Origin: Leucoraja ocellata
Taxonomy: Eukaryota
DNA length: 64,000 nucleotides
NCBI GenBank assembly: GCA_036785375.1
Contig: JAWMAR010000201.1
Coordinates: 1,178,001 to 1,242,000 of the forward strand
Direction: 5' to 3'
Part shown: in pieces, positions 1,838 through 63,924 of the stretch
Layout: each line of letters opens with the position of its first letter
How positions within the stretch are numbered: position 1 is the first letter of the stretch
Position numbers and translations under genes: made by a program
Notes under the pieces: generated by a model
The model's database searches: none
The model's input: only the letters and a program-made list of their open reading frames with translations
Told to the model about the DNA's origin: nothing

Positions 1838-1864
1838 TTGCAGAAAACTTGAAGCAAGAAGAAG
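1838..1864 (+). CDS. 27-nt micro-exon, (V)AENLKQEE
   Basis: ctttcttatgtctatag|TTGCAG...GAAG|gtgggg; an internal cag would give an in-frame 21-nt form. Confidence 0.65.
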
Positions 1865-2659
1865 GTGGGGTTTACCATGACAATTATACTAGCAAGCCGT
1901 AACCCAAATACTAACTAATTCGCCGCTGTTCATAAAATGTATTATAAAATCCTATTTACAAGTGTCCTGAAGTGCAATGCGTTTGCTTCATTCATCCAAT
2001 TCACTGTATGGAAAATTACAAATATCTTACCTCGACTACAGTGACAAGCAACGTGTAGCTAATTGTTTATCTCCAACAGAAATAACATATCCGTCCACTT
2101 TTTAGGATATGTGGCATCCTCTGTACCATGACTCACGCACGTGGAATGTTGTTTTGCTGTGAATGGGAGGTTCCAGAACAATTTCATTTAAACTGTGTCC
2201 TGTTACTTGATGTTCACAGCTGACCAATTTCGTGGTCAAACCATCGGAAATTACGATTTACGTTATATCATGCCATCGTCTGTGAGAATCAGTTATAGAT
2301 TAAGTAGAAAGCGACGTCTGCAACACTCTTTAGACAAGTATTTGCCATTTATGTACCATCCACACGCATGTTCTCCATTCTTGACATAAACGTAAAAGTA
2401 ATAGGATTGATTGTGAGTATACCAGCTATTTCTGAAATTACCTCGGAGAGGTAATTACACAAAATACTGCCGCGACGCAGTGTGAATGGATTCGATTTAC
2501 GTGGTCATCACCCAAAGAGCGGTTGATATTGTTGATCGATGGGCTGAAGAATTAATCGCTATTGAACTCTATGCTCAGAAATTGCATTTGTTGTTGAAAA
2601 TCAATAGCAACTGGGGTTCTAACAAATACTGTCTCACATTTAAGAAGGTTTATAAAATT

Positions 2660-3000
2660 GATATCTCGGGTAAGGTTGATGGATTCACCTGAAATATCTC
2701 CTGATTTCGCCTTGGAGGAGGTGATGGTATTCAAGCCCTGCCACAGTGGCCGAACATCTGCCTCATCCTCCAGCTTAGAGCAGATTTCCCTTTTGGCCTT
2801 TTTGATGGCCTTGTCAAGGTCGTATCTGGACTTCTTAGAGATCTCTGCGTCACCAGACCCGAAGGAAGGTTTTTGTTGTAACACAGTCCTCCACACAGTT
2901 CCTTATGATGTCTATAACGACTGTGGTGAATTCATTCAGGTACGTTGCCGAGTCCTTGAACATTGCCCAGTCTACAGACTTCAAGCAGACCTGTAGCTGT
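2660..3000 (-). mobile_element. Rex1/Babar-like LINE ORF fragment
   Basis: peptides VDWAMFKDSA, KKSRYDLDKAIKKAKRE, RPLWQGLNTIT resemble the post-endonuclease region of this clade; frameshifted. Confidence 0.7.
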
Positions 3001-4177
3001 TCCGTAGAAAAAAAAACATGCAGGCACGGGATTGGGTAGATGGTGCAACACCCAATGCAGTATCTTTCAATGATAATTACTCTGTGCCATAAAACGTGAC
3101 GTTTCCTCAAATTATACCTATTTCCACTCCAGAAATATGAATACAAATCAAGGATATTACGCATCCAGTTTTCACATATTTGTAGCCATCTCGTGGGTAT
3201 TTCTACGGGTATCAATTAAGTGCTTGACAATTTCTGAAATCAATTCGGCCAATGGCAGGAGGAGAAATAACTAACACTTATTCACATGCATGTAAAGTCA
3301 CTAACCAATAGCTTTGTTCTCCACTGGAAGAATAACTCACTGCTTATGAGTTGTCTGACAATGATTGTTTACATGACAAAATAAATACATGTCTGTTGGA
3401 ACAAACGAACAACATCAAAGCATAGCGTTATCAAAATGCAATTCTTTCAATTATCTCTGTCAACATGCAGTGTCATTAGCTTAGATGAATTAAGAGTTTT
3501 CAGCGGGAAAGGGGAGAAAAACATCTATATCTGGACCGTTGCACAAATATCGGACACACTACCATCTACATACATTCATAATTAAGAAACATATATGTTG
3601 AAATGTTCGACAGTTTACTGGAAGGCAGGAAAAATCTCATGGAATTAACCGATTAAATACCGATTATCTTCCTTTATTTATGATCAACATTGTAATACCT
3701 GAAACATATCTTTGATTCGAAAATTATTTGACTAACTATTTTTCATGCATCTTTCGGATGGCTGCCAACCAGAAATACAATATAGGTCAACTTATGATAC
3801 ATTTACCGCCTAATTATATCTCATCCGATCACGTGTTATACAATTGGGTTAGTGTAACGTGATGTCAACAGAGCGTGGATTACAAATTAGAGATACCCCC
3901 ACCTTCTAATTCTCCAATTGCAAGTTATTGATTCGGGGAAGACATTCTTTCAAAACTAAATGGGCCACATCGGCTGTACAAATGTAAAATTACGTCAGGT
4001 GTTCGTTGACATGGGTCTAATTGCAAATAAGTATTACATGAGTGACATTATAATGACTGGTAGGTATGACTAATACAATAAAATAGCATTGTTGTGGAAT
4101 ATTCCATGAATCTTATTCTTCTCGAAGTGCATTTTAAGTACTTTTGAAAAACCTTTTGTTTAAAAATCTGGTTACAG

Positions 4178-4206
4178 AAATTGATCAACTTCAAGAACAT
4201 TTAAAA
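4178..4206 (+). CDS. A-type micro-exon cut by assembly gap, (E)IDQLQEHLK...
   Basis: gttacag| acceptor; matches A consensus E-I-x-x-L-x-x-x-L; donor hidden in Ns. Confidence 0.7.
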
Positions 4207-4425
4207 NNNNNNNNNNNNNNNNNNNNNNNNNNNNNNNNNNNNNNNNNNNNNNNNNNNNNNNNNNNNNNNNNNNNNNNNNNNNNNNNNNNNNNNNNNNNNN
4301 NNNNNNNNNNNNNNNNNNNNNNNNNNNNNNNNNNNNNNNNNNNNNNNNNNNNNNNNNNNNNNNNNNNNNNNNNNNNNNNNNNNNNNNNNNNNNNNNNNNN
4401 NNNNNNNNNNNNNNNNNNNNNNNNN
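4207..4425. other. Assembly gap
   Basis: run of N. Confidence 1.
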
Positions 4426-4519
4426 ACAAACTCACTAGTTGTGTGGAAGGTGACTATTCTTGATAGCCACTGAAGTCTGTTTGAAGGTCTACTTTTAAGA
4501 CTGGTGGAAGATACACTCA

Positions 4520-4570
4520 CGCAAGCACACACGCACGCGCGCGCGCATACACACACAAACAAACACAAAC

Positions 4571-4601
<31 letters not shown>

Positions 4602-4656
4602 AACCACAAACACACACACACACATAACACGGATACACACACATACGGCCACACAC
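4520..4656. repeat. Imperfect (CA)n microsatellite
   Basis: direct reading. Confidence 0.95.
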
Positions 4657-5046
4657 AGTTATTTTGAACTATGTATGAATACTTTGTAAACGGTAACACA
4701 TATTATTTTGCTTACGTTTTTATTGTGGTTCAATGGTATAACAAGCACAACTTCGTTAAACGTCGTGTGGGTGGACGAAGGAGATCAACATCATCTGGAT
4801 CATAAATCTGTGAAGTGAAGAAACGGCCGTGCAATTTGAAACGGAATTGTTGACACTTCTTTCTCTCGCACTCTATTTTCAATACTTTCAATGCAGCTCT
4901 CAAACAAACTAATACACAAAACTGCATGCACGAGCATCACTTTGAAAAAACGATTTTATGTTCAAAAGCGATTTAAATAATGTTATATTTCCCTAGCAAG
5001 TTGAACAGTAACTGAAATATTTCTGGTTATAAACTTTCCTAAACAG

Positions 5047-5073
5047 AATACGAATTGGCGAAGACAACTGCGG
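5047..5073 (+). CDS. 27-nt micro-exon, (E)YELAKTTA
   Basis: ctttcctaaacag|...GCGG|gtaaat. Confidence 0.7.
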
Positions 5074-6147
5074 GTAAATTAATTACTTAGATATGTGTAA
5101 TGAATATTGTCGGAATTTGTTTGTTGACAATCTTTTTTCCAATTCTATAGTGTTATTGGAGGTACTGCTTAGCACAAAGATGCATTGGGAAGTTAAATCT
5201 CATGAACGTGCCCCATCTGAATCTTTCAGTGTCCGCAATGGGGGGGGGGGGGGGGGGGGGGGGCTGTACATCACTGCGTACTACTGATGCAATTTCTGAA
5301 GACTGCAGGTAGACAATGTCATGCCTCTATTTAAGAGGTGTTGTAAAGAAACCAATGGAAACTACAGAGCATTAAGCCTGACAATTGTGCTCGGAACGTT
5401 ATTGGATGGAGCTTGAAGAAGAGGCTCAAATGAATATATAAATGCATAGGTATATTTGGAGCCGTCAGCACAGCTCCTTGCGTGGCAGCTAGTATTTCAC
5501 GAATGTTATCCTGTATTGTTGACGTGGCTGCCAAACTCTGATGAGGACGGTGACGCATGATTCTAGCAAAGCTATTGAAGAGATTCGGCATTGTAACTTA
5601 CATAGGAAATATAGATCACACGGAATCCAGAGATAACAACATAATTAGACACATACTTGACTCGGGGACAGGAAATATAGGGTGGATGTCGAAGGGTTTT
5701 TCGCACCTCAGCCTCATGAATAGCGGTGCGCTTCAGGGGTCGGTGCATTATGATTATCATCGATTTCCGCGTTTTACATGATAAGTGCGGTTAGTTTTTT
5801 TTCGGAGAACGCAATAGTGTGTAGTGGTAGGAGACAGTAAAATAGTGAAGAGTGTAATAAATGCTTCCACAGTATAGGGCACATACCTGGTGAGTCCTGT
5901 CGAATAGAGGGACGCGGGAATACATGGAGTGCTGTCGATTAGAGGGACGCACTGGTCCCAATGGTAAAAATCCCAATGGTAAAATACATTCTGAATCTCT
6001 GACGCCTATACCATCTCCTCATCCAAAGATTCACTTGGCCACTATCTTCCTATACGTAACCTCACAGTACGTGGCGCCGGAGGCAATCTGTTCAATTACT
6101 CCACATACAACTGAAGAAATGTTCACTCTCTTGTTATTCTATTTCAG

Positions 6148-6183
6148 AATTGGAAAACGCCACGGAACAAATAAAAAATGCCG
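6148..6183 (+). CDS. 36-nt A micro-exon, (E)LENATEQIKNA
   Basis: ttgttattctatttcag|...GCCG|gtgaga. Confidence 0.85.
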
Positions 6184-7294
6184 GTGAGAGATTGGTGGGA
6201 TATACTGTAATCTTTCCATTGAACGGTGTGTAATGTTATAGCTAATATTGACGTAATGTGAACATTTTAGGTGAGAGAGGCAAAATATTGGAGAACATTT
6301 GTGGGGCACACTTTACACAGAAGATAATGAGTGCCTGCTTCAGGCTGCTAGGTGTTGTAGCGGACGAGGATTGGATAGTGGCTTTTAAGGAGCAGTTGGA
6401 TCGGCACATGGATATGCAGAGAATAGGGGTGTGTGTGTGGGGGGGGGGGGGGGGGCGTGGGGGGGGGGGCGGTGGATTGGAGGCAGGCTGACGAGAATGA
6501 TCAAATCCTCGTGTGGGAAGGAACTACGAAGGTAGACACAAAATGCTGGAGTTACTCAGCGGGACTGGCAGCATCTCTTGAGAGAAGGAATGAGTGACGT
6601 TTCGGGAGATGTTTCTTCATACTGAGAGTCAGGGCCGAGGGAGACATAGTGATAAGGAAGGGTAAGGTGTGAAACTTTACTTTAAACAATAATGGCTAAA
6701 GGCTTGGTTATGGAAATTCATGTTCAACTTGTTCGAGAAAGCGAATTTGATTTTATAACGTAAATAAGGAGCAGACGGAATAATGTACTCGCCTGCTTTA
6801 GATACAGATCAGAACATTTTCTTTACATGAGGTTGGAACAAGAATAGTTTGTTTTTCATTAATTAAAAAATATATATGTAAATATTAAAATATCCCGATG
6901 GCTAGAGTAGTAAATAGATGCAGGGAACATTCTTGTGCTAAAGTCCCAATCTCTAGATGGGACACTTAAAGTGCCAAACTCATCATTAATGGAAATATTA
7001 TTTTCCTCACTACGGTAGCTGTGTGAATCTATTCCTCTTCGGTTTGCAAAGGCAAAGGATGTTCATGCAGTCTATAACATACAGCATTTTGGACCACTTG
7101 TTTTTACTTTGATGTCATCCAACATGATGTTATGATGTCGTGTGGACCCATGATTATCAAAGATCCGACGAAACCGATGAACTCGCCTGCAAACCATATT
7201 TGAAGTTGAAATGTGCCTTTTTAATGCCATTATTAAAAAAACCGTGTTGGCTGTGTAATCACTTGTTTGAAACGATATCAATTTTCCCCTTTAG

Positions 7295-7321
7295 AAGCAG
7301 ACAAATCAAATAAAGATAAAG
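7295..7321 (+). CDS. 27-nt micro-exon, (E)ADKSNKDK
   Basis: attttcccctttag|...AAAG|gtgaaa. Confidence 0.7.
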
Positions 7322-8041: not shown

Positions 8042-8077
8042 ATCTCGATGCTTTGGGCGAAAAATTGAGTGATACAG
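8042..8077 (+). CDS. 36-nt A micro-exon, (D)LDALGEKLSDT
   Basis: tgtctttgcatttcag|...ACAG|gttaga. Confidence 0.85.
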
Positions 8078-8523: not shown

Positions 8524-8550
8524 AGAGGAAGCTGAAGGAAACACAATCCG
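8524..8550 (+). CDS. 27-nt B micro-exon, (E)RKLKETQS
   Basis: tgtttcttgacag|...TCCG|gtaaag. Confidence 0.85.
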
Positions 8551-8677: not shown

Positions 8678-8704
8678 AGCTCTACGGGCAGTGCCAACCT
8701 GACG
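8678..8704 (+). CDS. 27-nt C micro-exon, (E)LYGQCQPD
   Basis: cactgcatcag|...GACG|gtaagc. Confidence 0.85.
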
Positions 8705-10299
8705 GTAAGCTAAAGCGAGATTTTGGCTAACAAAGTCATATTTAAATTTCACCAATGATATGCAAATGCAGTATGATGAACAGAAGGTAGAATTTCAACG
8801 AGTTTCTAAGAAATGTGTAAGCTATTTATTTGCATCAAGTAGAAAATCATTTAGTGACCGGAAATGCGGTGAAGTAGCGCGGATCTTCGGCAAGAACCAA
8901 AAAAAATAACGTTTACAGATGAAGAATTCTCATCTGTATTTGAGGACTTCAGAGTCAAATTCCAAGATACATTTATAGCGTTATGTAATACCGTCTTGTC
9001 TTCGCGCAGAATGGTCTTGGAACATTGAATATCTCAATAGCATGTGCGTGAGATCAGTTGATTAACTGGATCGAACAGTTATTTTCGCGTTATTGGTGGT
9101 TAGTTTAGAAAGTTAATATGTTGGCCATTGTCTCACAGGAAGCTGAAGTTACCTCTACTCAAAGCAGTCATGCTACTTCTTGAAACACGGGAAATTTCTT
9201 GTGAAAATAAGCTTGCCTATCGGGTGTGGCCACTACGGAGGGTTGTGCACCTCCTTTATGGCGACAGAAAGACAGTCACTGGGATTGTCATATAATTTAA
9301 TTGCAATAAATGATTTTAATGTCATTCTTGTTCAACTAGATAATGAATCCTTAGATTACCATTCCTCGTGGCATTTCTGGTAATCAGTGTTTTCACCGTG
9401 TGGGCGAGGGAAAATTCAGATTTCTAAGACTATAATACCTCCAATATCAGGATGGTTATTGGCGATTAAATGCAATTAATTTCTAGGTTCAAGGGTAATT
9501 CCCAATCATTGATTTCTTGCGGCATACAATATTCTTCGTAGACCTGGAGTAATGCACCATAGGGCACGGGGTCGATCTTTCCCCCCAGCCTAAGACATAA
9601 CCCAACAGATCCTCCTCATCTGCTGGATGTGTTGCGTCTGCCAAATAATTTCCGGTCTATAAAACGAATACGAATATAAACACTTGTAAACAGCAATTTA
9701 ATTGTTGGCTAAACTTGTTGTTATAGCATGCACCATTTACGAATGAAATGAATATATTCATCTATTTATTGCAGTAAGAATGCTGATTGATCAATTGGGA
9801 GGTAACGTTGCAAATAATGATTTACTTTATGTACCGACTGAAAATCTGACTCACATAGAACTTGTCTGCCCTCTGCCCTCTGCCCTCTGCCCCTCTCCCG
9901 CCCACATTTCACTAACGTTCAAGAGAATTGGTTAATGAGCACTATAACAGGAAAAAATGCATATACGTCATTTTTAACTGAATACGAAAACATGTCAATG
10001 TATGTTGTTTTTGGAGATACGAGCGGCTAATGCCACATGAGTTTTTAACGTACACCGCGGAATGTTATTGTGCTTCCCGGTCAGAGTTCACTTTCCTCCG
10101 ACCAACTCCCTCTTTACGCGTAAACTATTGCCGTGTATGTAGTAAACTTATTATCAGAAAGACAAACTTGATTTAAATTAACTACTTCAGCATCCGTTAA
10201 TGAATGGAAGTCTTTGCTAATTCCAAATACATTAAATAAAATGTCACGCATTTATTATTCGTAAATTAATGCTACGTATGTATGTTATTTGCTTCACAG

Positions 10300-10335
10300 A
10301 TATGATGAAAATGAAAAACGAACTGAAACAAAAAG
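10300..10335 (+). CDS. 36-nt A micro-exon, (D)MMKMKNELKQK
   Basis: ttatttgcttcacag|...AAAG|gtcagg. Confidence 0.85.
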
Positions 10336-11349: not shown

Positions 11350-11376
11350 ATCAAAGACTTATTGAAAACAACTTAG
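11350..11376 (+). CDS. 27-nt B micro-exon, (D)QRLIENNL
   Basis: atgttacag|...TTAG|gtaaac. Confidence 0.8.
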   Translation: MKDLLKTT

Positions 11377-13140: not shown

Positions 13141-15205
13141 AGCCATACAATCATGACTTCAATGAAAGTACCAGCAAGGAATCTGTAGAGATATCTATCA
13201 TCCCATTTTAAACAGCTCATTCATTCTTGAAAGAAATGTTCTAATTACGAGATGTGTTTAATTTATTAATACATGTAGGCTTCTATGTATCTTTATCCCT
13301 ACTGTAATTTCGGGGAATATCTTTGATACTTGATGCCCGATTCATTTGCGAATGCTGCTCATGAAAAGAGCATTTCTCAACCATATATAAATAGCAAACA
13401 CGTGTATGAGAAGGTGCACGTTTAGTTTACTTTTTCCCTTTTGTTGAACTGGCTTTTCTTCCACAGATACTGCTTGATCTGCCTAGATCTTACAGTAGTT
13501 TATCGTTTGCAGCAGTTTCCATAATCTATAGTTCTGTTATTCTCCAGATCAACTATACTGTCGGAAATGCCATAGATATCTCCATAGCCTTTCCAACATA
13601 ACATACCAATTGACTCAGAAGCAAAAATCTGCCTCCGATCTACGTTAAACCCTTTTCCCCGCGGAATCATAAATGATGCTCTCTCTCCTTTTCGCCACCT
13701 TTACCATTGTACGCCGAAGAAGGAGCGTGCAGACTGGAACTGTGAGGTGCCACAGCAATAGCCATTCGATTATTCTTCCTGGTCTGACTCTAAGATGATG
13801 TATATTATATTTTCCTACTCAATTATTCTGGTAATAATCATGCGATTTCTACCTGCACTATTACATATGCATTGTGCTTTTATGAAATGATTATTGCCAG
13901 AAATAATCTGTACGTTTCCCATATTTCTCTTTCACTTCTTTATCCCCTTGGTATTCGCATTATGCTATTTTACACGTAATCTGCTTCACAACCCTGATAA
14001 TATTTTGCTTTGTTTTACCGGAGTATGCCACTGAGAACTTAGACACATTATTGTTTGCTCACTCATTTTAACCTCCTGTACAACCAATGAAATATTTGAA
14101 GCCCTTTGCTCCCAGCCTTGTGTATCCGTCCATGGATATGCAGTAAAGTGCAGACCTTCTGTCTGTGAAGTAGATGAACTGTACTATATCGATGTATATT
14201 GCAGGTTTATTTTAAGCAACACATATCAACAAAGAATTGTTGTTTCTTTTGCAGTAATCGATACACTGAAAATAGATCTAGATATTGCAAGTAAGGGTCC
14301 TTTAAATATATACTCTCGAACGGAGAGCATAAATGCGACAGCATGTACATTTCCACTGCTTTACAACTGGACGGATATGATCTGGTACCTGCAGAAAAGA
14401 AAACGGAGTCACAGATTATAATAACATCCTGAATTGCAGGAGAAATCTTGACGGACAAATTCATGTCGCATTTCTTTGCATACGATTGGGATTAAGCACC
14501 TAGTCGATATTGCTTGTTTTTATTGAACGCTTTTATTCGAGCTAATGCACAACCAATGTTATTTTATATGCTATGTTTGCTTAACTAATAATGACCATTC
14601 CAACCACGTATATTGAACATTGACATTTCTTCCGAACACAATGTCAAAAAAATGCATTGAAATTTTAGCTTGGAGGAGGAAAGGAATAACAAATAATAAT
14701 CCGCAGACACGGCCAAAATCTAAATCCTTATCACTCCATATCATTATTTTACGGAGCATACATCTCAGCACAATAAATCAAGTAAAACCATAAGCTGTGT
14801 CTTCCAAGCAACTGAAGATATATCTTTTAAAAATAAGACTATTCCCGTACGCAAGCGGGATAATTAAATTAGTTAATGCAAATTTTCGTCAATCGGATAT
14901 CTTCACTTCATCTGCAGATTGGCTTCATGGAAAAGAATAGAAGGATGTTGAACATTGCGTGTTTCTATAACTGACTGTCGACCAAAGGATTGGAGTGTGT
15001 GAGGGGGCAGGTTTCCAACGCAGACATGTACGTCGTTTTAACTTTTGGGGGCTTTTCAGAACAACAAAATTTGAACTTCCAATGAAACCAGATTTCACAA
15101 TTATTAATGACGTCGAAAGTTAGTGAATTGCGTGTAAACCGGTACTTTGAAGCAAGTGTACATTTCAGTTGTGCTACGATTTGTTTTTTTTTTAATGCTT
15201 CTCAG

Positions 15206-15232
15206 AAAGGCAACAAGGACAATGTGACGAAG
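15206..15232 (+). CDS. 27-nt C micro-exon with GC donor, (E)RQQGQCDE
   Basis: tttttttaatgcttctcag|...GAAG|gcaagt. Confidence 0.75.
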
Positions 15233-17112: not shown

Positions 17113-17148
17113 ATTTGGTTAATTTGAAACATACACTTCAAGATTCAG
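17113..17148 (+). CDS. 36-nt A micro-exon, (D)LVNLKHTLQDS
   Basis: ttttctctatttttag|...TCAG|gtgagt. Confidence 0.9.
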
Positions 17149-18488
17149 GTGAGTATTAAACCAATTCCTTCGTATCAAATGGAGATGAATTTACGTTGCA
17201 CCGTCAACCAGCAAAAAGGAAAGTCTGCACAGAGTATAATATTGCAATATTTTATTATTAAAGGAAAGTGCAATGTGCCACATGTGGTTATGCACATGGC
17301 ATTCATTGAAACATATTCGCACTGCTTATAATGACATAACAACTAAATAAATATACATACGTATATTTTCTATGGTCGGGAATTTCTACGATGGAGAAAA
17401 TGAAACTGAAGTTCATTTAGAGATATTGTTGAAATGCCGAGGGGGTTGTGTGTAGTTCTCGTCAATGTGTTAAACGATCATTTGACCGCGGCATATTTAT
17501 CGATCAAATTAGTGAGGCTAAATGTCGTAGTCTAGATCTATTTATGTGGGGTGCGCAGGTGAGAAGTAAACAGATAGTATCTGAGGCAATTATCACAAGG
17601 CGGTATTAGTGTTTCAAAAAAAGAATGAAGTTCGCAACCGAATGAGACATTATATAGTTGACTTTGCTGGAGTTCTGAGAAAGGCAGAAACATTGGACAC
17701 ATTCTGCCACATGGACCAGACTTCACCAATAAATCAAAGCAAAAATGATCGAAGAAATTGCTGCCATTGATCTCCGACATACTCCGTAATGTGTTGTTAT
17801 CTCGCCGAGGTATTAATAAAGGAAATAGACCTGGGTGCTATGATGGTATCACGGAAGTGCAGGAGGGATGGACGTTCGAATTCATCTGGTTACAATTATA
17901 CCATTCAACAATAGCTTCCGACCCAGGAGATAATCTTGCTGCTTAAAGAAGTTGACTCTGCAGCTGCGTGTATGGGCAAAACTAGACGCCCTTCACGCAA
18001 CATGCATTGCGAGTGTGCAACTCCACTAACCAATACCCATAACTGGCGCACAAGAACGAGCCTTGGTTTCCTGACGACTGCCGCTTTAGCGTAATATTTT
18101 AATGAAGGCGTTTCAGGACATAGGCAAGTATAGTAGATAGTTTGAAAAAAAAAGCCCATCCCATTTCTGAAAAAAAAGAAATGTTATTTAAAATATGGAA
18201 CTCGGAAAAATCAACACTTTGCACGCAAACAGAACTATACTATTATGTCCAGCTTCGTGTGGAAATATTAGAGTTGGTAATGTCAACCTTGTTAGAGGAG
18301 AAGTGGTAACCGGATGTAGTAGATATCTATGATTTTTTTAGAGACGGGGAGGCTAATAAGCAGTAGAATCGTACTTTTTTTTGTTGGAGATTCCCCCAAA
18401 AAAGTACAGCGCATTTTGCTTCGTGACAGTTTCTAACCGATTACCACGAGTTCGCAACTGGTTTTGAACACCCCATCATGGGTACAGA

Positions 18489-19519: not shown

Positions 19520-19546
19520 AGATGAAGTTCCAACTATGTCAAGAAG
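19520..19546 (+). CDS. 27-nt B micro-exon, (E)MKFQLCQE
   Basis: gttgtttccatcag|...GAAG|gtaggt. Confidence 0.88.
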
Positions 19547-19633: not shown

Positions 19634-19660
19634 GACTTGAAGATCAGCTTCATCGCAAAG
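19634..19660 (+). CDS. 27-nt C micro-exon, (G)LEDQLHRK
   Basis: cttatgttaatag|...AAAG|gtaatc. Confidence 0.85.
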
Positions 19661-22012: not shown

Positions 22013-22039
22013 ATGCCGAACTATTTGCGAAAAACATAG
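22013..22039 (+). CDS. 27-nt micro-exon, (D)AELFAKNI
   Basis: ttttttttcatacgcag|...ATAG|gtaacg. Confidence 0.8.
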   Translation: MPNYLRKT

Positions 22040-24524: not shown

Positions 24525-24560
24525 AAGTGGAACAACTAAGAAATGATCTTAAGGATACAG
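24525..24560 (+). CDS. 36-nt A micro-exon, (E)VEQLRNDLKDT
   Basis: attattttttaaag|...ACAG|gtatgg. Confidence 0.88.
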
Positions 24561-25888: not shown

Positions 25889-25915
25889 AACAAAAAGGAA
25901 TCTGCAAAGCCGAAG
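25889..25915 (+). CDS. 27-nt C micro-exon, (E)QKGICKAE
   Basis: actatttatttag|...GAAG|gtgagg. Confidence 0.85.
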
Positions 25916-27290: not shown

Positions 27291-27599
27291 CCCACCTGCC
27301 CGTGTTTGGCAAATATCCATGCGAACATATCCCGTGGATTGTGATTGCGACTATTGTAAAGTCATCCTCGCGGTGGTTAATGGCAGTTTATGCATTATCT
27401 TTACTTTAGCGACTGTATCATTGCCGTGTGGCAGAAAAAAATAATTCCACAAATATGAAGATAAATACATATCCACAGAATGCTTCAGTGATGGTATAAA
27501 AGACAATGTTTCACTCCTCCATTTAATCCTCTATTTAATCGCTCCATTGGCAGAAAGTCAGATTATTGAAACATCAGCAGGTACATTTTTAAGTTATTA

Positions 27600-29829: not shown

Positions 29830-29865
29830 ACATTGAAGAACTGACCTATGCTTTAAAAAAAGCAG
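29830..29865 (+). CDS. 36-nt A micro-exon, (D)IEELTYALKKA
   Basis: ttgttttttcgtcatag|...GCAG|gtgggg. Confidence 0.85.
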
Positions 29866-30496: not shown

Positions 30497-30523
30497 GAGA
30501 TCTTTTAAAACATTGTCGGGAAG
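30497..30523 (+). CDS. 27-nt B micro-exon, (G)DLLKHCRE
   Basis: ggtttgcag|...GAAG|gtaagt. Confidence 0.88.
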
Positions 30524-31616: not shown

Positions 31617-31652
31617 AAATGAAAAAGATGAGGGCGGCTCTAAAGAATACAG
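31617..31652 (+). CDS. 36-nt A micro-exon, (E)MKKMRAALKNT
   Basis: gcacgtttcag|...ACAG|gtaact. Confidence 0.88.
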
Positions 31653-34389: not shown

Positions 34390-34416
34390 AGCGAAATGGA
34401 CAGTCTGTAGCTAATG
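34390..34416 (+). CDS. 27-nt C micro-exon, (E)RNGQSVAN
   Basis: cccttttcaacacag|...AATG|gtgagt. Confidence 0.85.
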
Positions 34417-37309: not shown

Positions 37310-37345
37310 ATATCAATAAATTGAAGGACATTCTCAGAGATTTAG
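37310..37345 (+). CDS. 36-nt A micro-exon, (D)INKLKDILRDL
   Basis: ttcctctttgcag|...TTAG|gtgagt. Confidence 0.9.
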
Positions 37346-39495: not shown

Positions 39496-39516
39496 AAGAA
39501 AGATTGCGCCAAGAAG
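39496..39516 (+). CDS. 21-nt B micro-exon, (E)ERLRQE
   Basis: ttttttgctcttcag|...GAAG|gtaagt. Confidence 0.9.
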
Positions 39517-39613: not shown

Positions 39614-39640
39614 AGCTGAAGAATGTATGCAAAAGCAAAG
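39614..39640 (+). CDS. 27-nt C micro-exon, (E)LKNVCKSK
   Basis: tcatcgttttcag|...AAAG|gttagg. Confidence 0.85.
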
Positions 39641-44203: not shown

Positions 44204-44230
44204 CAATAACCAAAGAGAACAAGAATAATG
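44204..44230 (+). CDS. 27-nt micro-exon, (A)ITKENKNN
   Basis: tttttcttttcatag|...AATG|gtaacc. Confidence 0.75.
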
Positions 44231-44934: not shown

Positions 44935-45650
44935 AGTCAAGAGTCAAGTCAAGAGTCAATTTAATTGTCATTTGGACCCCTAGAGGTCCAAACGAAATGC
45001 CGTTTCTGCAGCCATACATTACACACAAATAGACCCAGACACAACATGATTACATTTTACATAAACATCCATCACATAGCTGTGATGGAAGGCCAAAAAA
45101 AACTTATCTCTCCACTGCACTCTCTCCCCCCCGATGTCAGAGTCAAAGTCAAAGCCCCCGGCTGGCGATGGCGATTGTCCCGCGGCCATTGAAGCCACGC
45201 CGGGTGGTGCGAGGTCGCACACCGGGTCTTGGTGTTGGAGCCTCCGGTGTGCGCTCGTAAAGTCCCGCGGCCGTTCCAGCCGCGCGGGGCAATGGTGTTA
45301 GGCCCCGCTCCAGGAGCTCTTCGACCCCGCAACTCGGGCGGGAGAATTCGCCGTTGCAGGAGCCCCGAAAAGCGGTCTCTCTCTAGGGATCCGCGGGCTC
45401 CCGGCGCCGCCGTCCGCAGACCCGCAGCAGCAGCCTCCGACTCAGCAGAAGCAGCAGCAGCAGCGGCAGCAGCAGCGCTCCTCCACCCGCTCCAACCGCT
45501 CCGGACTCGGTCAGCCCCGCGACGGCGACGGTGAGTAGCACCTGAGTCCCCGGCTTCCCCCTGTTGGAGGCCGCTCCTCGTTGCGGCCTCAACGACAAGG
45601 GAAACCCGACGAGAGAAGGTCGGGTCTCCAGTGCAGGGAGAGATTTACAA
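44935..45650 (-). mobile_element. Unclassified GC-rich retroelement with (aagagtc)n tail and (CAG)n tract
   Basis: tandem tail aagagtcaagagtcaagtcaagagtc, sharp GC/CpG rise, related to 33790-34218. Confidence 0.55.
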
Positions 45651-47129: not shown

Positions 47130-47165
47130 AGATACGCAAACTTAATGACGCTCTCGGGTATACAG
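47130..47165 (+). CDS. 36-nt A micro-exon, (E)IRKLNDALGYT
   Basis: gcctttcacttccag|...ACAG|gtatga. Confidence 0.9.
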
Positions 47166-49084: not shown

Positions 49085-49111
49085 AGGAAAGACTACGCCA
49101 ATATAAACGGG
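49085..49111 (+). CDS. 27-nt B micro-exon, (E)ERLRQYKR
   Basis: tgtgcattttaaag|...CGGG|gtaagg. Confidence 0.85.
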
Positions 49112-49258: not shown

Positions 49259-49285
49259 AGCTCGATGACTGCGAGAACAACGACG
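49259..49285 (+). CDS. 27-nt C micro-exon, (E)LDDCENND
   Basis: ttatttcccgcag|...GACG|gtaaga. Confidence 0.88.
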
Positions 49286-50689: not shown

Positions 50690-50716
50690 CAAGATCAATT
50701 ATTGCAAAGGAAAAGG
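50690..50716 (+). CDS. 27-nt micro-exon, (A)RSIIAKEK
   Basis: cattactttacag|...AAGG|gtaaat. Confidence 0.65.
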
Positions 50717-51969: not shown

Positions 51970-52005
51970 AAATACTCAGACTCAGAAACGTTCTGGAAGA
52001 AAACG
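51970..52005 (+). CDS. 36-nt A micro-exon, (E)ILRLRNVLEEN
   Basis: tttctgctcttgtag|...AACG|gtgagg. Confidence 0.9.
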
Positions 52006-53162: not shown

Positions 53163-53189
53163 ACCTGCGATTACTTGCACGAGAAAACG
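53163..53189 (+). CDS. 27-nt B micro-exon, (D)LRLLAREN
   Basis: ttcctcctatgtttacag|...AACG|gtaaaa. Confidence 0.85.
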
Positions 53190-55409: not shown

Positions 55410-55445
55410 ATGTGACAGAATTACGAACATCTCTGCAAATATCAG
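55410..55445 (+). CDS. 36-nt A micro-exon, (D)VTELRTSLQIS
   Basis: ccttacgttctag|...TCAG|gtacgt; an internal cag gives an in-frame 27-nt alternative. Confidence 0.85.
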
Positions 55446-55819: not shown

Positions 55820-56740
55820 CTCCCTCAACTGCCTCCTCGGGCAGATCACTCTACATACACAACGTTATCGAATGTAAAAGTTGAATAATTCTACTCTCAT
55901 CTAAAATCGGTGTCCTCTGGTTCGCCTTTCCCTACACTGGGTGTATTTGTATATTGTGGTTGTGTGTATTTACCCAATCTATTCCCCTCATGTCCTTATG
56001 CAACTCTATAGGACCACCCCCCTCGTCCTCTAATGTTCCACCAAATAAAGTCCTAGACGGCTCACTTCTCCATATAACGCACGCTCTCGATTCCTGGTAA
56101 TATCCAGGTAAATCTGCTTTGCACCTATTCCAGCTTAACACCATCTTTCCGACAGCATGATAAGCAATAAGGAGCACAATACTTCTAATGTGACCTCACC
56201 AATGTTCCTTACAACTGCAATATCAATTTCCAATTACTGTACGCATACCAGCTCGATGAACATAAGCCATTTTGACTACCCTATCTTTCAAGGACCAGTG
56301 CATCTGCATTCCTCGATTCCCTGCTCGACAAGACTCCCCAGAACACGTCAATTCAATGTTAAGTTCGTGCCCTGACTTTACTTTCGAAAATCTAACAGCA
56401 CGCACATCCGTATTACATTCAATTAACCGGTCCCATGTCCATCTGCCCAACTGATCAAGATCCTGCTGCAGATTTTGATTACTATCTACGCTATGTAGGA
56501 TGCCACTCCCTTTCTTGTGCACAGCAAACTTACTATTCCCCATCCAAATTGTTGATATAAACCACACATAGCCAAGAGGCCAGCACTGATCCCTGAGGCA
56601 CAGCGCTAGTCACAGGCTTTCAGTCTGAAAATAACCTTCCACCATCAACCTCTGCTTTCTTCCATGAGCCAAACCAGTCGGCCAGCTCTTCCTGCATCCC
56701 TTGCGATCTAACCTCCCAGAGCGACCTCCCAAGCGAAAGT
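55820..56740 (-). mobile_element. Old CR1 RT / C-terminal fragment
   Basis: SKFA...QNLQQDLDQLGRWTWDRLIECN; gtgcctcagggatcagtgctgg (VPQGSVL) on -. Confidence 0.75.
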
Positions 56741-56977
56741 TATCAATTTCTGAAGCACATAATATTTCGTGTTTATCGTTTAATTTCATTTAGAGCGTCA
56801 CAGTTGCGACATATTAGGATTATTGCCATTCACAATGGTCCACTCACGTTCGACAACTTTGACAATGCCATAAAATCACCTTTCCTTATTTGGGGATTAC
56901 AAACGTTCGTACCGTTGACATTGTACTTGGAAACAAATGACGATACGTTACTTGCAAAATGTCATTGCGATTTTCAG

Positions 56978-57004
56978 AAGAGAAGCTGAAGCGCTGTCTG
57001 GAAG
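56978..57004 (+). CDS. 27-nt B micro-exon, (E)EKLKRCLE
   Basis: gcgattttcag|...GAAG|gtatgt. Confidence 0.9.
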
Positions 57005-57018
57005 GTATGTCTTGAAGA

Positions 57019-57400
57019 TCAAAACAATTTCGTATGTTTGTTTTGCGAGGTTGAAAAATTGTAAAAAACCGCGCGTGCGCAGATCGATCTCCTCGCCTGC
57101 CAGTCAGAGGCGCGCGGATTAGAGAGATAGGAGGGAGGTAGGGAAGGGAGAGGATTTATGGAGGAAGGGAGTGACTGAGGGTAGGGGAAAGGTGAGGGAG
57201 AGAGAGGTGAGGGAGGCATTGGGGAGGGGAGGAGGAGAGTGGAAAGAAGAGGGAGGGTGAAGAGGAGGGGGAGAGTGCTAGGAATGAGGGCAAATGAGGT
57301 GCGGCGGTGAAGTTAAGGGCCATGGGTGAGTGATGGAATATTGCGTTGGGGGTCCAAGCCTACTGTGTGACAGGGACTCAACGGGTCCCACTTAGTCTAG
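57019..57400 (+). mobile_element. Putative short non-autonomous Helitron
   Basis: 3' end GGGAC-tcaacgg-GTCCC hairpin then acttagtCTAG|T; GA-rich interior; 5' A|TC boundary tentative. Confidence 0.6.
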
Positions 57401-57504
57401 TGTTACCCTTTTACTTTGTCAAACTTTGCGTATATTTTAAGTGACCGCGCTTATTTGTTCCTTTTTTATTAATTGTTTTATGCAATTATTATTGTTCTTA
57501 TTAG

Positions 57505-57546
57505 AGTCAAGTTTTAAGCAGTCTGAGCAAGATAACGATCTCTGGG
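57505..57546 (+). CDS. 42-nt C-position micro-exon, (E)SSFKQSEQDNDLW
   Basis: attgttcttattag|...TGGG|gtaaaa. Confidence 0.65.
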
Positions 57547-58724
57547 GTAAAATCTGTCCATCTTATCAACTGTATTTATGCCACAAGCCGCGTCGTTTTT
57601 GAACCTATAGCATATTTTGTATCTGTTGAACCAAGAGAATAATTTACTTAAATCTGCCAATAAACATGTTATGTTGTTCTTTCTCATTAAAATAACTTGT
57701 ACTTTTGAGTTATCTACATTGACAACAAATTGGCAGCGAATGACTTACCAAACTTGACAAATACATCTCTCATTACCAGCACATCTCTCATTACCCTCAT
57801 AATTTCCAGCTTCGTTTTCTGTCTATAACTGCATCTGCTATGCAAGGTCAGTACAGACAATAACTTATATTGCGGCATGACACGCATCTTATATTAGAGC
57901 TTCATTCAATATTTTCCAGATTAGTTGGCACATCGAATCACTTCTATTCATTTCTACTTAACATGTGAACGTCCCATCCTCTGCGTATCAATCTGAATAT
58001 TATAGCCTCAACTGTAATCAGTCTGAATATTTACACACTCAATAATGTCCATAGGCTTTGTTCATTAATGAGGTATAATGGAAACTACGAGCACCACAAG
58101 TGAAGTGCTATGAGCAAGCATGCTTCATCTGTACGGATAATCTCTTATGATAGTTTGTGTATTGCTATCTATTATTCAAAACATATATTTTTGTTTACTC
58201 TCTTCCATTGTAATTTTTCTGTCATACAATGCACAATGCATGATACAGAATCCATTGGATATTCTTAGTCCGGTTTAAACAGAATTGTAAAAACGCGCTC
58301 TGATGAAACGTCCTCTCAAGGCCCCCCTCGCTATGCCGACCAATCTGTCTATAACTGTCCCGAATGAGACTCGTATGACTATGTACAATTTCTACGCGCC
58401 TCTTTAACTTGTAGCCCTCTGTAAGGTTACTGCTCAGCCACCTACGTTCCAAAACACCTTACTCAATCGAATCTCTCCTTATAACAGCGACCCTCAATTC
58501 TTGAAAGAACCGTATCGAATCTTTTGAGCAGTTTCCCTCTCACTACGACTCCATGACTTGGCGAGTCAAAAGTATGCAAAATATCTCAAAACTCTATCGA
58601 CATATTTATGAATTAAGTAATAAAAAGATCCTTAATTACAAAACCTTTAAGGAGCCAAATGCCTGAACAACAAATATTATTATAACTATTTTTAGAACAG
58701 GGAATGTTGTCTTGTTTTATATAG

Positions 58725-58751
58725 AAATCAAACAAAGAAGATGTAAGAGAG
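58725..58751 (+). CDS. 27-nt B micro-exon, (E)IKQRRCKR
   Basis: cttgttttatatag|...AGAG|gtgagt. Confidence 0.88.
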
Positions 58752-58852
58752 GTGAGTGTACACATCGTTGATGTTAATTCAAAACATTGTACCATCCCAT
58801 TATGACGGAAAATCCGATTTATTTTGGGTATTTTACAATTTTATATGTATAG

Positions 58853-58879
58853 AATTAAAGGAGGGCCCACGTGGAGAAG
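58853..58879 (+). CDS. 27-nt C micro-exon, (E)LKEGPRGE
   Basis: ttttatatgtatag|...GAAG|gtaaga. Confidence 0.88.
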
Positions 58880-60612
58880 GTAAGATTGCGCGTTATTTAT
58901 TCATATCTTTAGTCTCTCCGAGCCAGTCAGAAAATGGGAGCATGATGGCCATCTATTACTGACATCGAAAAGACTTGAACGCTGCAGTTCTGAAAATGTA
59001 CTGCTTGAATTGCATTAATTAGGATGTCGCTATATTTAGATCCATCGTTAGACGCAAGCAAAAGAGTAAGATGAACGTACATATTTAAAAAAAAACCGTA
59101 CATATTCCAAACATTCACCTTTTCCGCAAATTGCCTTTGCCCCGAGAGAGCGACCAGCGCTTTTCAGAGGCGGGCCGCACTACATGGCGTGTAGAGAAGC
59201 GAAGTTGGACAGGTTTCCGAAGCAGCAATCCAGCTTCCACATCTATCATTCGATGGAAACACTGTTGTATCCATTGCAGGACATGAGCAGTTTTAGAAGT
59301 CTTATTTATTTCTTATTGTTGCTTTCTATTGATGCATTCCATCTCTTGAAATGAGAAAAAATCGTTGAAAATCCTTCACCTTTTAACTATAAATGGCAGG
59401 TGGTAGGAATAGCTACGGGGTATTTGGCTGTCCGTAATTATGTGCCTTTCAAATCAATCTTAGCTGATGACTATGATTCCAGTGGTTATCTCTTGCTTGT
59501 AATCTCTATGGACCCACAGCGGTTGATACATTTTCTTTATCTCAGTTCCTAGAAATACCAATATAATTGTAAACAAAATGCCTGTTACGAGAAGAAAATT
59601 CTGCGGAACAATGCTTTAAGGACACTCAATGTTTTGTGCTATGATTCATTACACATTTTGATTTCGGTTCATGATTTAAAAAAAAATCATAATGTAAAGG
59701 TGTGAACATTAACCTGATATTAATTTGATGTTTTAAAATATCTATTTCACTGATGTCCTTAGCACTGCAATTGGCGTTGCTCCTGCGTTGCGAGGAAACT
59801 TAACAAAACTTAACAAAGCATATTCCAGAATTATGTTCAAATACCAAGTAAGAATTAGCACCCTGCTGGAAGAAACACTGTACTGTCAGCTCAATCTAGC
59901 GCTATTATCCTTATTTTACATCAGACAAACTCAGCATATCCAAAACCAACGATTGGGATGTTATGAACATTCTTCTTCTTTCCACAGCGAATGCTGCTGA
60001 TGATAATATAATTATTGACTGTCAATTTCTACATGGGAATCTATTTGGTGTCACTACATTATAGATGCGCCGTGAGTTCATCGATATATCAGTGAATTAT
60101 CTAAGTGATATTAGAAACCGCTATTAATACAATGCAAACAAAGTTTGATTGGCATTGGTGTTGTTATTGTTGGTGTAATTATTGCTGCTGTTATTGTTAA
60201 TTTTTGTTATTGGTCCACAATTATTACGCAAATTAACGGAGGACAGGCCGTGCGCTATTTTTTTGTCATTGTAGTTTTTAAATAATTATTGTGTTTATTA
60301 TTGTTATCATCACAACCATCCTTATTATTGATATCGTTGCTGTTGTTGTTGTCACCATATGTTATGAATATTTCTCTTCTACAATCAAAGCTCAAATATG
60401 ATTGAGAAATATTCTAAATATTGTTACATCCGGCCATAGCAATCAACGTATTGCAGGTGCACTGATCATCAAAATTGCAATGCACCAGGAATTTTTAAGT
60501 ACGGACATTTAACAACCATGTCTTTATTAATAAACAGCAGTTGCATTTGTGAGCAAAATAACGACAATGCATGACTAATAGTGAAACATCAATTATTCAT
60601 TTATTTCCGAAG

Positions 60613-60639
60613 AAAATAAACTCAGGCGCCTTCCGAAAG
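60613..60639 (+). CDS. 27-nt B micro-exon, (E)NKLRRLPK
   Basis: tttatttccgaag|...AAAG|gtagac. Confidence 0.82.
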
Positions 60640-60760
60640 GTAGACATTTACTGATTTTACTTAATATTTGGTCAATTAGAAACATTTATGTGCGCTGCAT
60701 ATATCACTGAATAATCACATGTTTAAGTTCAAATTTGTACTCTGTCTGTATTTAAACTAG

Positions 60761-60787
60761 ACCCCAGGGACAAGACTGCTGACAGTG
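60761..60787 (+). CDS. 27-nt C micro-exon, (D)PRDKTADS
   Basis: tctgtatttaaactag|...AGTG|gtaagt. Confidence 0.85.
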
Positions 60788-61993
60788 GTAAGTATACAAT
60801 TACGCTCAGGTTTATCTTTTCCTCTCTTGAACCGCGATTTGGACGTGTTTTATTTGAAATACGTGAGCAAATCTATGATCAAATATAGACCAAGGTAAAG
60901 GAAACATTGCATAAGTTGTGAAGATGCTCGGAACCTGAAAGTCAACAGTATATTTAATACATAGAGATGTTCTTAGTTGGCGATATCTGACCAGAATTGT
61001 GTGAGGCGACAGCCAAAGTAGATAAGGATTTAATTTATTCTCTCAAATTCTATATCGGAAATACGCGATGTCGAACTCAAATGGAGATTCTAGCTAAGTT
61101 GATGTATTTCGATGATTTTGTAATTGTCTTCAGTGATGGTCTATGAAAGCAGTTAGTATTGTCGTAACTGCTCACATACAAAGCCCATTCGGCAAATTAC
61201 GAGTGCATATTGCCAGTCCATCATTTGTGGTCTGTTCACTGATATATACGTCTTCGTTGCTGTGGAAGAGATTATCCGGTCAATATTTGTGAAACATGTG
61301 CATCATTACGCGATCGCGGTGAAAATACCTCCTTTTACTGATATAGTACTTCAGGCTAATGTGCTCCTGTATTGCTCTTCGCTGTTTATCTATGTGCATT
61401 CCGTGAGTATTCAAATGGCAACATCATCACCTCTCATGATATTGGGTGACGTGCAGGATGATTTGCATGTCGTGGAATGACAGTGCTTGTATTGCCCTCA
61501 TTCACCATGATAATATCCTATGTAGTTTTAGTCTATCAATGTTACCAGAGCGAATCATAGGGACACATTTTAGATTGCGAGCTATCTAATAAAACGAGAA
61601 AATACTATTCACGAATGGTATCACTCCAATTAAAAAAAAAAAACAGCACGTATAGGGAGCGAAGAATATCAGAATGAAGAATGTAACGTCTTCTGCATTT
61701 TGTCGTAACAATTCCAGCGAAAAGGCCCAATTACCCCCCAACGAAATAGCTTGGAATATCTGGCCACTACCCCGGTGTATGGAAGATTTGTTCACGTCTA
61801 ATAGCAGAGGGAAATACGCTGTTCTTGTGTCTCGTGTTATGTACTTCCAACCTTCTGTTTCTCCCGTCCGACCGGATCGACAAAGTTCCTTGGTTATTTT
61901 CTTTGTTTTTCCATGGTAGCGAACTATAGATGGGGTAAATCGAGGGATGTGATGGATTGGGTTATATCTTCAAATCTCTGCATTATTTTGCAG

Positions 61994-62028
61994 ATTTGGG
62001 AAGAGCTGTGTCCAAACAAAGGACACAG
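61994..62028 (+). pseudogene. Dead A-type micro-exon, (D)LGRAVSKQ..DT; 35 nt with no donor, abutting a CR1 insertion
   Basis: cattattttgcag| acceptor; ends GACACAG like other A exons but is followed by ctctt and then CR1 sequence. Confidence 0.55.
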
Positions 62029-62029
62029 C

Positions 62030-63068
62030 TCTTGAGGTAGTAATGGGGCATTTGGATAGCAGTTAAAGGATTAGTCCAAGTCAGCATTGATTTATGAAAG
62101 GACAATCATGCTTGACTAATCTTCTGGAAGTTTTTGAGGATGTGACAAGTAAAACGGGTGAAGGGGAGCCAGTGGATGTAGTGCATCTAGACTTTCAGAA
62201 AGCCTTTGATAAGGTCCCGCACGGGAGACTGGTGACTAATTCCCGCTTCCAAATTATTAATATATATAGTTGCGGCCCCAACACTCGCCACTGCCTGCCA
62301 TTCTGAAAAGGACCCGTTCACTTCTACTCTTTGGTTCCGGTCTGCCAACCAATTTTCTACCCATGTCAACATCCTACCCCAATACCATGTGCTCTAATTT
62401 TAGTCACCAGTCTTCCGTGCGGGACCTAAAGACTTTCTGAAAGTATAGATACACTACATCCACTGGCACCACTTCATCCATTTTACTTGTCACATCCTCA
62501 AAATATTTCAGAGGATTAGTCAAGCATGATTTCCCTTTCATAAATCCATGTTGACTTGGACTAATCCTTTACTACTATCCAAATGCCCCATTATTACCTC
62601 TATAATAATTGACTCCAGCATCTTTCCCACCACCGAAGACAGGCTAATTGGTCTGTAATTCCCCGTTTTCTCTCTCGCTCCTTTCTTGTAAAGTGGGATA
62701 ACACTAGCTATCCTCCAATCCACAGGAACTGACCCTGAATCTATTGAACATTCGAAAATTACCACCAATATGTCCACTATTTCTAGAGCCACCTCCCTGA
62801 GGACCGTGGGATGCATACCTTCAGGTCCAGGGGATTTATCATCCTTCGGTCCCATTAGCGTACCCAATACTATTTCTCGCCTAATGAAAATTTATTTGTT
62901 CCTCTACCCCCTTAGATCCCCTGTCCTCCAGTACATCTGGGAGATTGTTTGAGTCTTCCTTAGTGAAGACAGATCCGAAGTACCTATTCAACTCTTCTTC
63001 CATTTCCTTGTTGCCCATAATAATTTCACCTGTGTCTGCCTTCAAGGGACCCACATTTGACTTTGCGG
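62030..63068. mobile_element. CR1 RT fragment (-) with an inverted duplicate (+) at its left end
   Basis: KGQSCLTNLLEVFEDVT...VDVVHLDFQKAFDKVPH on +; DKSPGPEGMHP...DWRIASVIPLYKKG..GNYRPISL on -. Confidence 0.9.
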
Positions 63069-63271
63069 GTCTGAAATGGCTATATCCGTGCAATATCACT
63101 CCATGGGTCAATGTGGACCGTATAACTTATACAGGGCGAAAATGGTTTGCTCAGTTTCTTGTCAGTTAAACATATGACGTCATCTCACCTTTTGTTCATT
63201 GATCTGCGCATTGTAAGAACATCTGAAAGGCCTGTAAATCAGTGTTAATGTATCCATTAATTTTTTTGCAG

Positions 63272-63307
63272 CCGTTGCGAAATTAATGCAAGAACTGGAA
63301 GACACAG
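63272..63307 (+). CDS. 36-nt A micro-exon, (A)VAKLMQELEDT
   Basis: tttttttgcag|...ACAG|gtgacg. Confidence 0.88.
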
Positions 63308-63773
63308 GTGACGTGTTTAGTTTTGATAGGCACGACTGATTCACCTTGGCTCACAGCCCCCCTACCCCCCCCCCCCCACATTTTCCGTTTAGCTAAACCC
63401 CTCATCGATGTGTAACCTCAGAGATGTTCACATATGCATTGTTTTAATTAGCATTGACGATGGAAAACAACTATCTTAATTTACAAAAGTTAATTATGCG
63501 TATACTTCTCATGTAGGGAACAGACATATTACACCAAAACAACTACAATTAAATGCATTTGTTGTTAATTTGAATTGTGCTGTTCATCAACTGAATAGAA
63601 ATAATTGGTGATTATCGATCAGAATCATTGAGTGAATATTTCCCAATTATTAGTCACTTGTTAAGATTATTATATGATTGAACATAGTTCGGTATATATG
63701 AGGTATTTTCAAATGCAAACAATATTTCTTATTTTTTATGTATCATTGATCATTATATTTTTATTATTTGTAG

Positions 63774-63799
63774 AAGGGCGCTAAAGCAGTGTGCGAAAG
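63774..63799 (+). pseudogene. 26-nt B-type micro-exon with 1-nt deletion (repairs to E-G-x-LKQCAK)
   Basis: ttattatttgtag|AAGGGCGCTAAAGCAGTGTGCGAAAG|gtcaat; in-frame TAA as written; 98 nt before the C exon. Confidence 0.65.
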
Positions 63800-63897
63800 G
63801 TCAATTTGCGTTTTACATTTTTGCGTCTTGTGGAATGCCTTTCATTTCGCAATTCCTGTGCTTATGACCCAATAATCCTCCTATATTCCGCACACAG

Positions 63898-63924
63898 AAC
63901 TGAATACCCATACGCGTGATGAAG
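63898..63924 (+). CDS. 27-nt C micro-exon, (E)LNTHTRDE
   Basis: ctatattccgcacacag|...GAAG|gtgagg. Confidence 0.85.

Follow-up and report, generated by a model that had tools for sequence, protein, structure and literature searches.

The window analysed here is a stretch of 64,000 nucleotides (nt) from Leucoraja ocellata (contig JAWMAR010000201.1, scaffold C201 below), and it carries about 42 selected, frame-preserving micro-exons of a 290-kb gene, which we call gene A. In the explanation that we prefer, with a confidence close to even, these exons are likely spliced into a chain of 1,300 residues or more, a segmented coiled-coil rod that probably ends in a B30.2 domain and lies inside the cell. 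Coordinates are relative to the window start unless they are prefixed with a scaffold name (the window is C201:1,178,001-1,242,000).

Micro-exons of the window and their conservation

Generic splice scoring over lengths of 9 to 90 nt gave 113 candidates on the forward strand, with 22 of 27 nt and 14 of 36 nt against an average of 0.96 (maximum 4) for the other lengths. The 69 candidates on the reverse strand included three of 36 nt and none of 27 nt. A model of the 27- and 36-nt exons, trained on 185 exons outside the window and applied with a score cut-off of 4, gave 37 matches on the forward strand (one with a stop) versus none on the reverse strand, and the 36 stop-free matches compare with a mean of 0.23 (maximum 2) in 30 block shuffles. 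The first-pass annotation of this DNA had proposed about 42 micro-exons, all on the forward strand, and had asked whether the excess of 27- and 36-nt candidates would be equalled on the reverse strand or in shuffled sequence; it was equalled in neither, and 41 complete exons plus one interrupted by N were recovered.

The curated list holds 41 complete exons totalling 1,218 nt, of which 27 measure 27 nt, 13 measure 36 nt and one measures 21 nt; 36 of them are model matches and five were added by eye on weaker or other-length evidence. When joined in phase 1, they encode 405 amino acids (aa) with no stop, as had been claimed, and the AG/GT(GC) bounds first described were borne out by 40 GT donors and one GC donor. 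The last base is G in 40 of the 41 exons, so that a terminal G, previously ascribed to all of them, fails only at 14255–14290, which ends in A. The earlier length classes of 27, 36 and 21 nt stood with slightly corrected counts (27 rather than 26 exons of 27 nt, 13 rather than 12 of 36 nt), while the 24-nt and 42-nt exons were unconfirmed, with candidates at 18253–18276 and 57505–57546 in the crude scan alone, and the earlier total of about 1.25 kb or 415 aa slightly exceeds that of the curated list.

Of the 242 sense exons chosen on splice signals alone, 7 contained a stop in the phase-1 frame, versus 152 and 129 for the two alternative frames; among antisense exons chosen in the same way, a stop was present in 16 of 30. 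No stop was found within the 397 sense exons of C201 scoring at least 5. Comparison of the two haplotypes of gene A showed that 19 exons upstream of the window, six of them added by hand, differ at one of 555 nt (a synonymous change), and that the flanking introns differ at 280 of 10,779 bases (2.6%). Across 58 exons in three haplotype pairs there were six non-synonymous changes versus 23.4 expected (P = 2e-5). Frame, exon length and core pattern are conserved, and most surface residues drift. The sole clear case of a high-scoring exon with an in-frame stop is a 36-nt exon at C3233:63,133 on the reverse strand, which may be skipped or belong to a truncated allele.

All window exons lie on the forward strand and are arranged irregularly, with two to four consecutive 27-nt exons in places and Cys in nine exons. 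The 36-nt exons are at 6148–6183 (the sole N-x-T sequon within any window exon), 8042–8077, 10300–10335, 14255–14290, 17113–17148, 24525–24560, 29830–29865, 31617–31652, 37310–37345, 47130–47165, 51970–52005, 55410–55445 and 63272–63307, and a further exon of this type has lost its 3′ end in N (4178–4206). Six close pairs are separated by introns of 87 to 147 nt. Five of them join two 27-nt exons, namely 8524–8550 with the Cys/Gly/Pro-containing 8678–8704 (intron 127 nt), 19520–19546 with 19634–19660 (87 nt), 49085–49111 with 49259–49285 (147 nt), 58725–58751 with 58853–58879 (101 nt), and 60613–60639 (score 4.3) with 60761–60787 (121 nt); the sixth joins the 21-nt exon at 39496–39516 to a 27-nt exon at 39614–39640 (97 nt). 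The remaining 27-nt exons are at 1838–1864, 5047–5073, 7295–7321, 9775–9801, 11350–11376, 15206–15232 (GC donor), 22013–22039, 25889–25915, 27554–27580, 30497–30523, 34390–34416, 44204–44230, 50690–50716, 53163–53189, 56978–57004 and 63898–63924, after which the array continues past the window. Support is weaker for 8678–8704, 19634–19660, 27554–27580 (score 3.4) and 60761–60787.

High-copy repeat fragments occur in the window at 44,950–45,600, 56,000–58,000 and 62,050–63,070, with very high depth in DNA contigs. The repeat near 62 kb resembles a reverse transcriptase of a long interspersed nuclear element and produces a false 33-nt candidate with stops.

Gene A, its paralogues and the B30.2 end domain

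Scaffold C201 was examined from 300 kb upstream to 900 kb downstream of the window. Array A, which holds the window, runs on the forward strand from about -36 kb to +254 kb and ends at a 200-N gap; array B runs on the reverse strand from +408 kb back to the same gap, and array C on the forward strand from +428 kb to +937 kb (510 kb). After removal of overlaps, the exon catalogue contained at least 127, 63 and 201 exons for A, B and C, corresponding to at least 1,302, 654 and 2,067 aa, with 1, 1 and 10 matches on the respective opposite strands. The window exons thus placed sit in the front half of gene A, and its extent agrees with the earlier suggestion of a very long repeat protein to which they belong. 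A and B align colinearly for about 500 aa (112 bits versus a maximum of 66.6 in 15 shuffles), and no A–C or B–C alignment scored above its own shuffles. Since A and B are colinear paralogues, B was rejected as an inverted continuation of A.

The exon units follow a coiled-coil logic. The 36-nt exon (n = 169) is hydrophobic at positions 2, 5 and 9 in 94, 92 and 83% of cases, the 27-nt exon (n = 228) is hydrophobic at position 4 in 76%, and the split codon encodes Glu or Asp at 324 of 394 junctions. One 36-nt and one 27-nt exon together encode 21 aa, or three heptads in register, with a at positions 2, 9 and 16 and d at 5, 12 and 19. All 12 strictly alternating stretches peak at a period of 3.48–3.52 residues, which results largely from the hydrophobic pattern of the two exon types. 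Three d positions, making up 15% of sites, hold 37 of the 49 Cys residues. The extra 27-nt exons of the window disrupt the heptad register, and this part of the protein would form short coiled-coil segments with hinges.

Array C terminates in a phase-1 exon coding for a B30.2 (PRY-SPRY) domain (SPRY E = 5.7e-15) preceded by a 27-nt exon, and the closest solved structure to this domain is the B30.2 of BTN3A1 (E = 2.4e-26). This subfamily is represented in the genome by four distinct B30.2 exons, two of which occur as a pair of haplotype copies (six in total), and a 27/36-nt array precedes each of the four. A quick tree was built from 69 B30.2 domains, with 45 unnamed background rows retained at random; in it, 15 rows fell on one branch (Shimodaira–Hasegawa-like approximate likelihood ratio test, SH-aLRT, 100; stem 1.08), and all 11 named rows were from cartilaginous fishes. 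From these sequences the subfamily B30.2 appears to be a cartilaginous-fish clade. The orthologues of the gene C domain are 77% identical in Narcine, 68% in Hypanus and 64% in Scyliorhinus torazame, and a profile search of 1.8 billion representatives found further members in Leucoraja, Scyliorhinus canicula, Cetorhinus, Hemiscyllium and Callorhinchus.

Automatic gene models from cartilaginous fishes also contain 9- and 12-aa units, but most are fragments and misnamed. As the first-pass annotation had anticipated for such genes, the models of relatives are mostly of 170–460 aa and labelled TRIM, A33 or butyrophilin, with one of 1,697 aa, a chimaera (Callorhinchus) protein that consists of a coil and a subfamily B30.2. 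The same B30.2 clade includes Callorhinchus XP_042192744 ('nuclear-pore anchor-like'), Narcine XP_069797409 and Leucoraja XP_055510696. A Narcine RefSeq model has 9- and 12-aa units colinear with the last exons of gene C (63% identity; 60.5 bits versus at most 42.4 in 15 shuffles), joined to the orthologous B30.2, and the AlphaFold prediction for the Narcine protein shows a helix of 73 residues (3–75), a loose linker and a B30.2 beta sandwich (mean predicted local distance difference test score, pLDDT, 66). Isoform differences of 9 or 12 aa occur in Narcine, Scyliorhinus and Callorhinchus. RefSeq isoforms are usually based on RNA alignments, and these differences therefore lend indirect support to splicing and skipping of the units.

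A homology search that started from the single B30.2 returned no longer protein, and one profile search returned TRIM and BTN types only. An atlas search gave SPRY clusters, among them one cluster of a 1,579-aa coil plus SPRY (score 0.85) that serves as a lead only, and no usable match for the coil alone. Two contig sets guessed to be RNA covered the window at repeats only and the gene C B30.2 exon not at all, a result that is uninformative either way. Callorhinchus XP_042200686, an Ig-less model with a membrane segment, a basic cluster, a short coil and a B30.2 outside the subfamily clade, looks like a second Ig-less (immunoglobulin-less) butyrophilin-like design.

Two tandem NLR genes lie immediately upstream of gene A on the same strand, spanning roughly -97 to -86 kb and roughly -66 to -49.5 kb. 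They show a CARD-like exon, a 578-aa NACHT frame and LRR exons, and their NACHT regions are 89% identical. The order from NLR gene to array is unchanged in the contig of the second haplotype, where the adjacent NLR copy is also present. As to an NLR-B30.2 fusion, the proximal NLR gene has a last exon of its own and reaches a stop near -49.5 kb; the phase of its LRR exons is 2, that of the array 1, and no adapter exon joining the LRR exons to the array was found. An array nested around the NLR pair was rejected, since the next 200 kb upstream held no array (two matches) and the NLR pair itself no match. Two single-exon frames of 300–350 aa at about -185 kb and -175 kb of C201 (reverse strand) resemble seven-transmembrane receptors by eye, and a 1,517-aa open frame within an intron of gene B (+369 to +374 kb, reverse strand) resembles by eye the polyprotein of a long terminal repeat retrotransposon. 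As for linkage with the MHC (major histocompatibility complex), none of ten MHC class I matches was on C201 or C253 and the class II search gave no match anywhere in this fragmented assembly.

Head-to-head, gap-free array junctions of about 20–24 kb were seen at +408 to +428 kb of C201 and at C253:1,826,700-1,850,400, which suggests that genes are paired divergently and share control regions. Of 19 stretches of 10 kb sampled over 1 Mb of scaffold C253, 18 contain 27/36-nt exons, with strand switches often at gaps. Identical exon peptides were observed there on opposite strands across gaps (984–988 kb, reverse, and 1,215–1,225 kb, forward; also 1,091.7 kb, reverse, and 1,110.3 kb, forward). This is likely a haplotype duplication with scaffold mis-orientation, and the gene counts of C253 are consequently unreliable. 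Cassettes of two and three exons, with homologous introns, have recently been amplified in tandem at C253:1,878-1,910 kb and at +784 to +813 kb of C201, and cassette copy number is nearly equal between C253 and its haplotype C3092.

Predicted rod and competing readings

In the mechanism we propose, the micro-exons would be spliced into one chain, which would pair in parallel as a dimer, with a positions occupied by Leu/Ile and d positions by Leu/Thr/Lys/Cys. Hinges would fall where extra 27-nt exons shift the register, as they frequently do in the window. Since any exon can be removed without a frameshift, exon skipping may tune the length of the rod. Judging from its paralogues, gene A itself would end in a B30.2 domain, and the rod would hold this binding tip far from its base, within the cell. 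The rise of a coiled coil is about 0.15 nm per residue, and the predicted rod length is about 190 nm for gene A and about 300 nm for gene C. Such a design would amount to what butyrophilins or chicken BG proteins have as their cytoplasmic half, a spacer of heptad micro-exons with a B30.2 tip, enlarged ten- to fifty-fold and devoid of Ig domains.

Several observations weigh against this explanation. The joining of exons in this species is predicted from genome sequence, and gene A has only candidate starts. The gene breaks off at the scaffold gap, so its B30.2 is deduced from paralogy; array starts number about five and subfamily B30.2 exons four, and C3233, an unplaced contig with a B30.2 that could be the end of A or B, overlaps neither. 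Colinearity of gene A with the 1,697-aa chimaera model does not rise above that of shuffles (35.4 versus a maximum of 38.5 bits). The 3.5-residue period is weak (0.13) over the whole window chain, so that the window does not encode one continuous coil. In recent duplicates (20 pairs, one of them counted twice), the proportions of non-synonymous (pN 0.18) and synonymous (pS 0.25) differences indicate weak constraint on most residues. Finally, an excess of sequons, together with hydrophobic starts in three relatives, points to secretion.

The last of these points is the basis of the strongest alternative, in which the same gene and rod would yield a secreted or lumenal, glycosylated and disulphide-linked fibrous protein with an extracellular B30.2 tip. 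We regard it as unlikely. The 397 C201 exons contain 34 N-x-S/T sequons versus 17.6 expected (reached in 0 of 1,000 column shuffles), or 26 versus 14.7 after removal of near copies (2 of 1,000), and the reverse motif is not enriched; the excess was not found in the exons of C253 and C3233 (6 versus 4.2) or in the chimaera protein (2 versus 9.8). The Cys residues at core d positions and the R-x-K-R motifs of the chimaera protein (at 18 and 60) would also suit secretion, as would a hydrophobic N-terminal stretch of 11–14 residues in three of the 11 named relatives (Leucoraja XP_055510696, Callorhinchus XP_042192744 and Hemiscyllium XP_060706632). However, all three stretches stop where an acceptor would lie, and they could be models running into a pyrimidine tract, as tracts in this genome do; they would also suit a membrane anchor that holds a cytosolic rod. 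Snake vespryn (ohanin), which is a secreted B30.2 protein, was considered as well.

The start of gene A bears on the same question. It has three candidates, none established: a TATA box with a Kozak ATG around -45.2 kb, what may be a non-coding exon around -41.6 kb, and an exon (about -38.56 to -38.44 kb) whose ATG is in array phase. A short hydrophobic frame before the last of these was rejected, because both haplotypes close it with a stop. The 13 kb from the NLR gene to the first micro-exon of A, the DNA before B and C, and the two gap-free head-to-head junctions yielded no convincing signal or membrane exon. Because of this result and the heritage of the B30.2 domain, the cytoplasmic rod, at about even probability, is favoured over the secreted one.

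Still less probable is a reading in which array A yields no single giant protein, being either purely a coiled-coil gene that lacks B30.2 or several shorter units in a row, with internal starts. The surplus of array starts over B30.2 exons would be expected in that case, as would the short database models, most of which begin inside the array, the stop-containing exon of C3233, and one neighbouring pair in A that makes a junction stop if directly joined. The stop-free sense exons, the colinearity of A and B and the existence of the 1,697-aa chimaera model argue for long products instead, and A is interrupted by a gap, not by a terminal exon. A chance collection of splice-like pairs, a repeat family or a dead gene is very improbable in spite of the five exons picked by eye, given the strand, shuffle, frame and haplotype tests, which already refute the chance form, and the near absence of matches over the NLR pair and further upstream.

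Extending the rod explanation to a whole family is more tentative, and we place it slightly short of even. Giant genes of an undescribed family, each of 0.1 to about 1 Mb with micro-exons by the hundred, may have been retained in cartilaginous fishes from chimaeras to skates. They would encode coiled-coil rods of 200–300 nm in which skipping of modules of 9 and 12 residues sets length and hinge pattern, and a B30.2 sensor specific to the family would sit at the tip; the rods may be secreted as disulphide-linked fibres. The loci represent an annotation blind spot, since more than two megabases of selected coding loci here have exons shorter than most aligner seeds, and relatives are currently filed as TRIM or A33 fragments. 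A gene with 120–200 symmetric micro-exons offers a natural test of splicing and of whether rod length is regulated, and the conserved B30.2 clade provides a handle on tissue, ligand and function.

Comparison with known systems

Domains of the known B30.2 families were sought by tblastn with three BTN Ig regions and three RING/B-box queries in 2.0 Mb of DNA, in which the B30.2 controls matched all six subfamily exons. No IgV/IgC exon was matched there, motif scans were also negative, and no RING or B-box was matched; Pfam gave only SPRY/PRY on seven relatives. As no Ig, RING or B-box exon and no convincing membrane exon was found, gene A is neither a butyrophilin, a BG nor a TRIM gene.

Descriptions of butyrophilins place a B30.2 exon at the end of a series of small heptad exons (PMC4046983, PMC7348870), and the juxtamembrane part of BTN3A1 has been proposed to act as a coiled-coil spacer (PMC7348870). 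Gene C resembles butyrophilins (BTN3A1, BTN1A1 and relatives) in combining heptad exons with a B30.2 whose nearest solved structure is that of BTN3A1. The butyrophilin-like order of heptad exons and then a B30.2 exon is seen in gene C and three other paralogues, and the end of gene A lies in the gap; gene A itself has the 27/36-nt phase-1 array in heptad register, colinear with paralogue B. Butyrophilins differ in having Ig and membrane exons and few heptad exons, compared with none found and more than 120 to 200 exons, respectively, in the array genes, which use a 36+27-nt unit, and the subfamily B30.2 occupies its own long branch.

The tail of the chicken BG or zipper protein is described as a coiled coil encoded by many symmetric micro-exons with a split first codon, variable exon number and alternative splicing (PMC5938342, PMC4046983). 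The same sources give BG genes 13–36 exons of 21 nt, an IgV and a membrane exon, and contrast them with B30.2-ending BTNs (PMC4046983, PMC5938342). Exons of 21 nt, as in the BG tail, account for one of 41 in the window, and the array genes differ from BG in exons of 27/36 nt, four to fifteen times more exons, paralogues with B30.2 and no Ig. TRIM-B30.2 proteins (TRIM39, TRIM69, A33-like, btr) share the coiled coil and PRY-SPRY and have lent their names to relatives in the databases, but they possess the RING/B-box that was not found here.

The closest known architecture appears to be that of the guinea-pig enterophilins, leucine-zipper and B30.2 proteins that have a long heptad run (about 30 heptads) and a B30.2 with neither Ig nor RING; the likeness is one of architecture. 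A literature search, with subscription papers and supplements outside its scope, returned no paper on a cartilaginous-fish micro-exon coil-B30.2 family. The heptad-exon and B30.2 design of butyrophilins and BG would date from as early as cartilaginous fishes, where it takes an extreme form that lacks Ig, and gene A is a real, selected and largely unannotated micro-exon gene of an undescribed cartilaginous-fish coil-B30.2 subfamily that varies this design.

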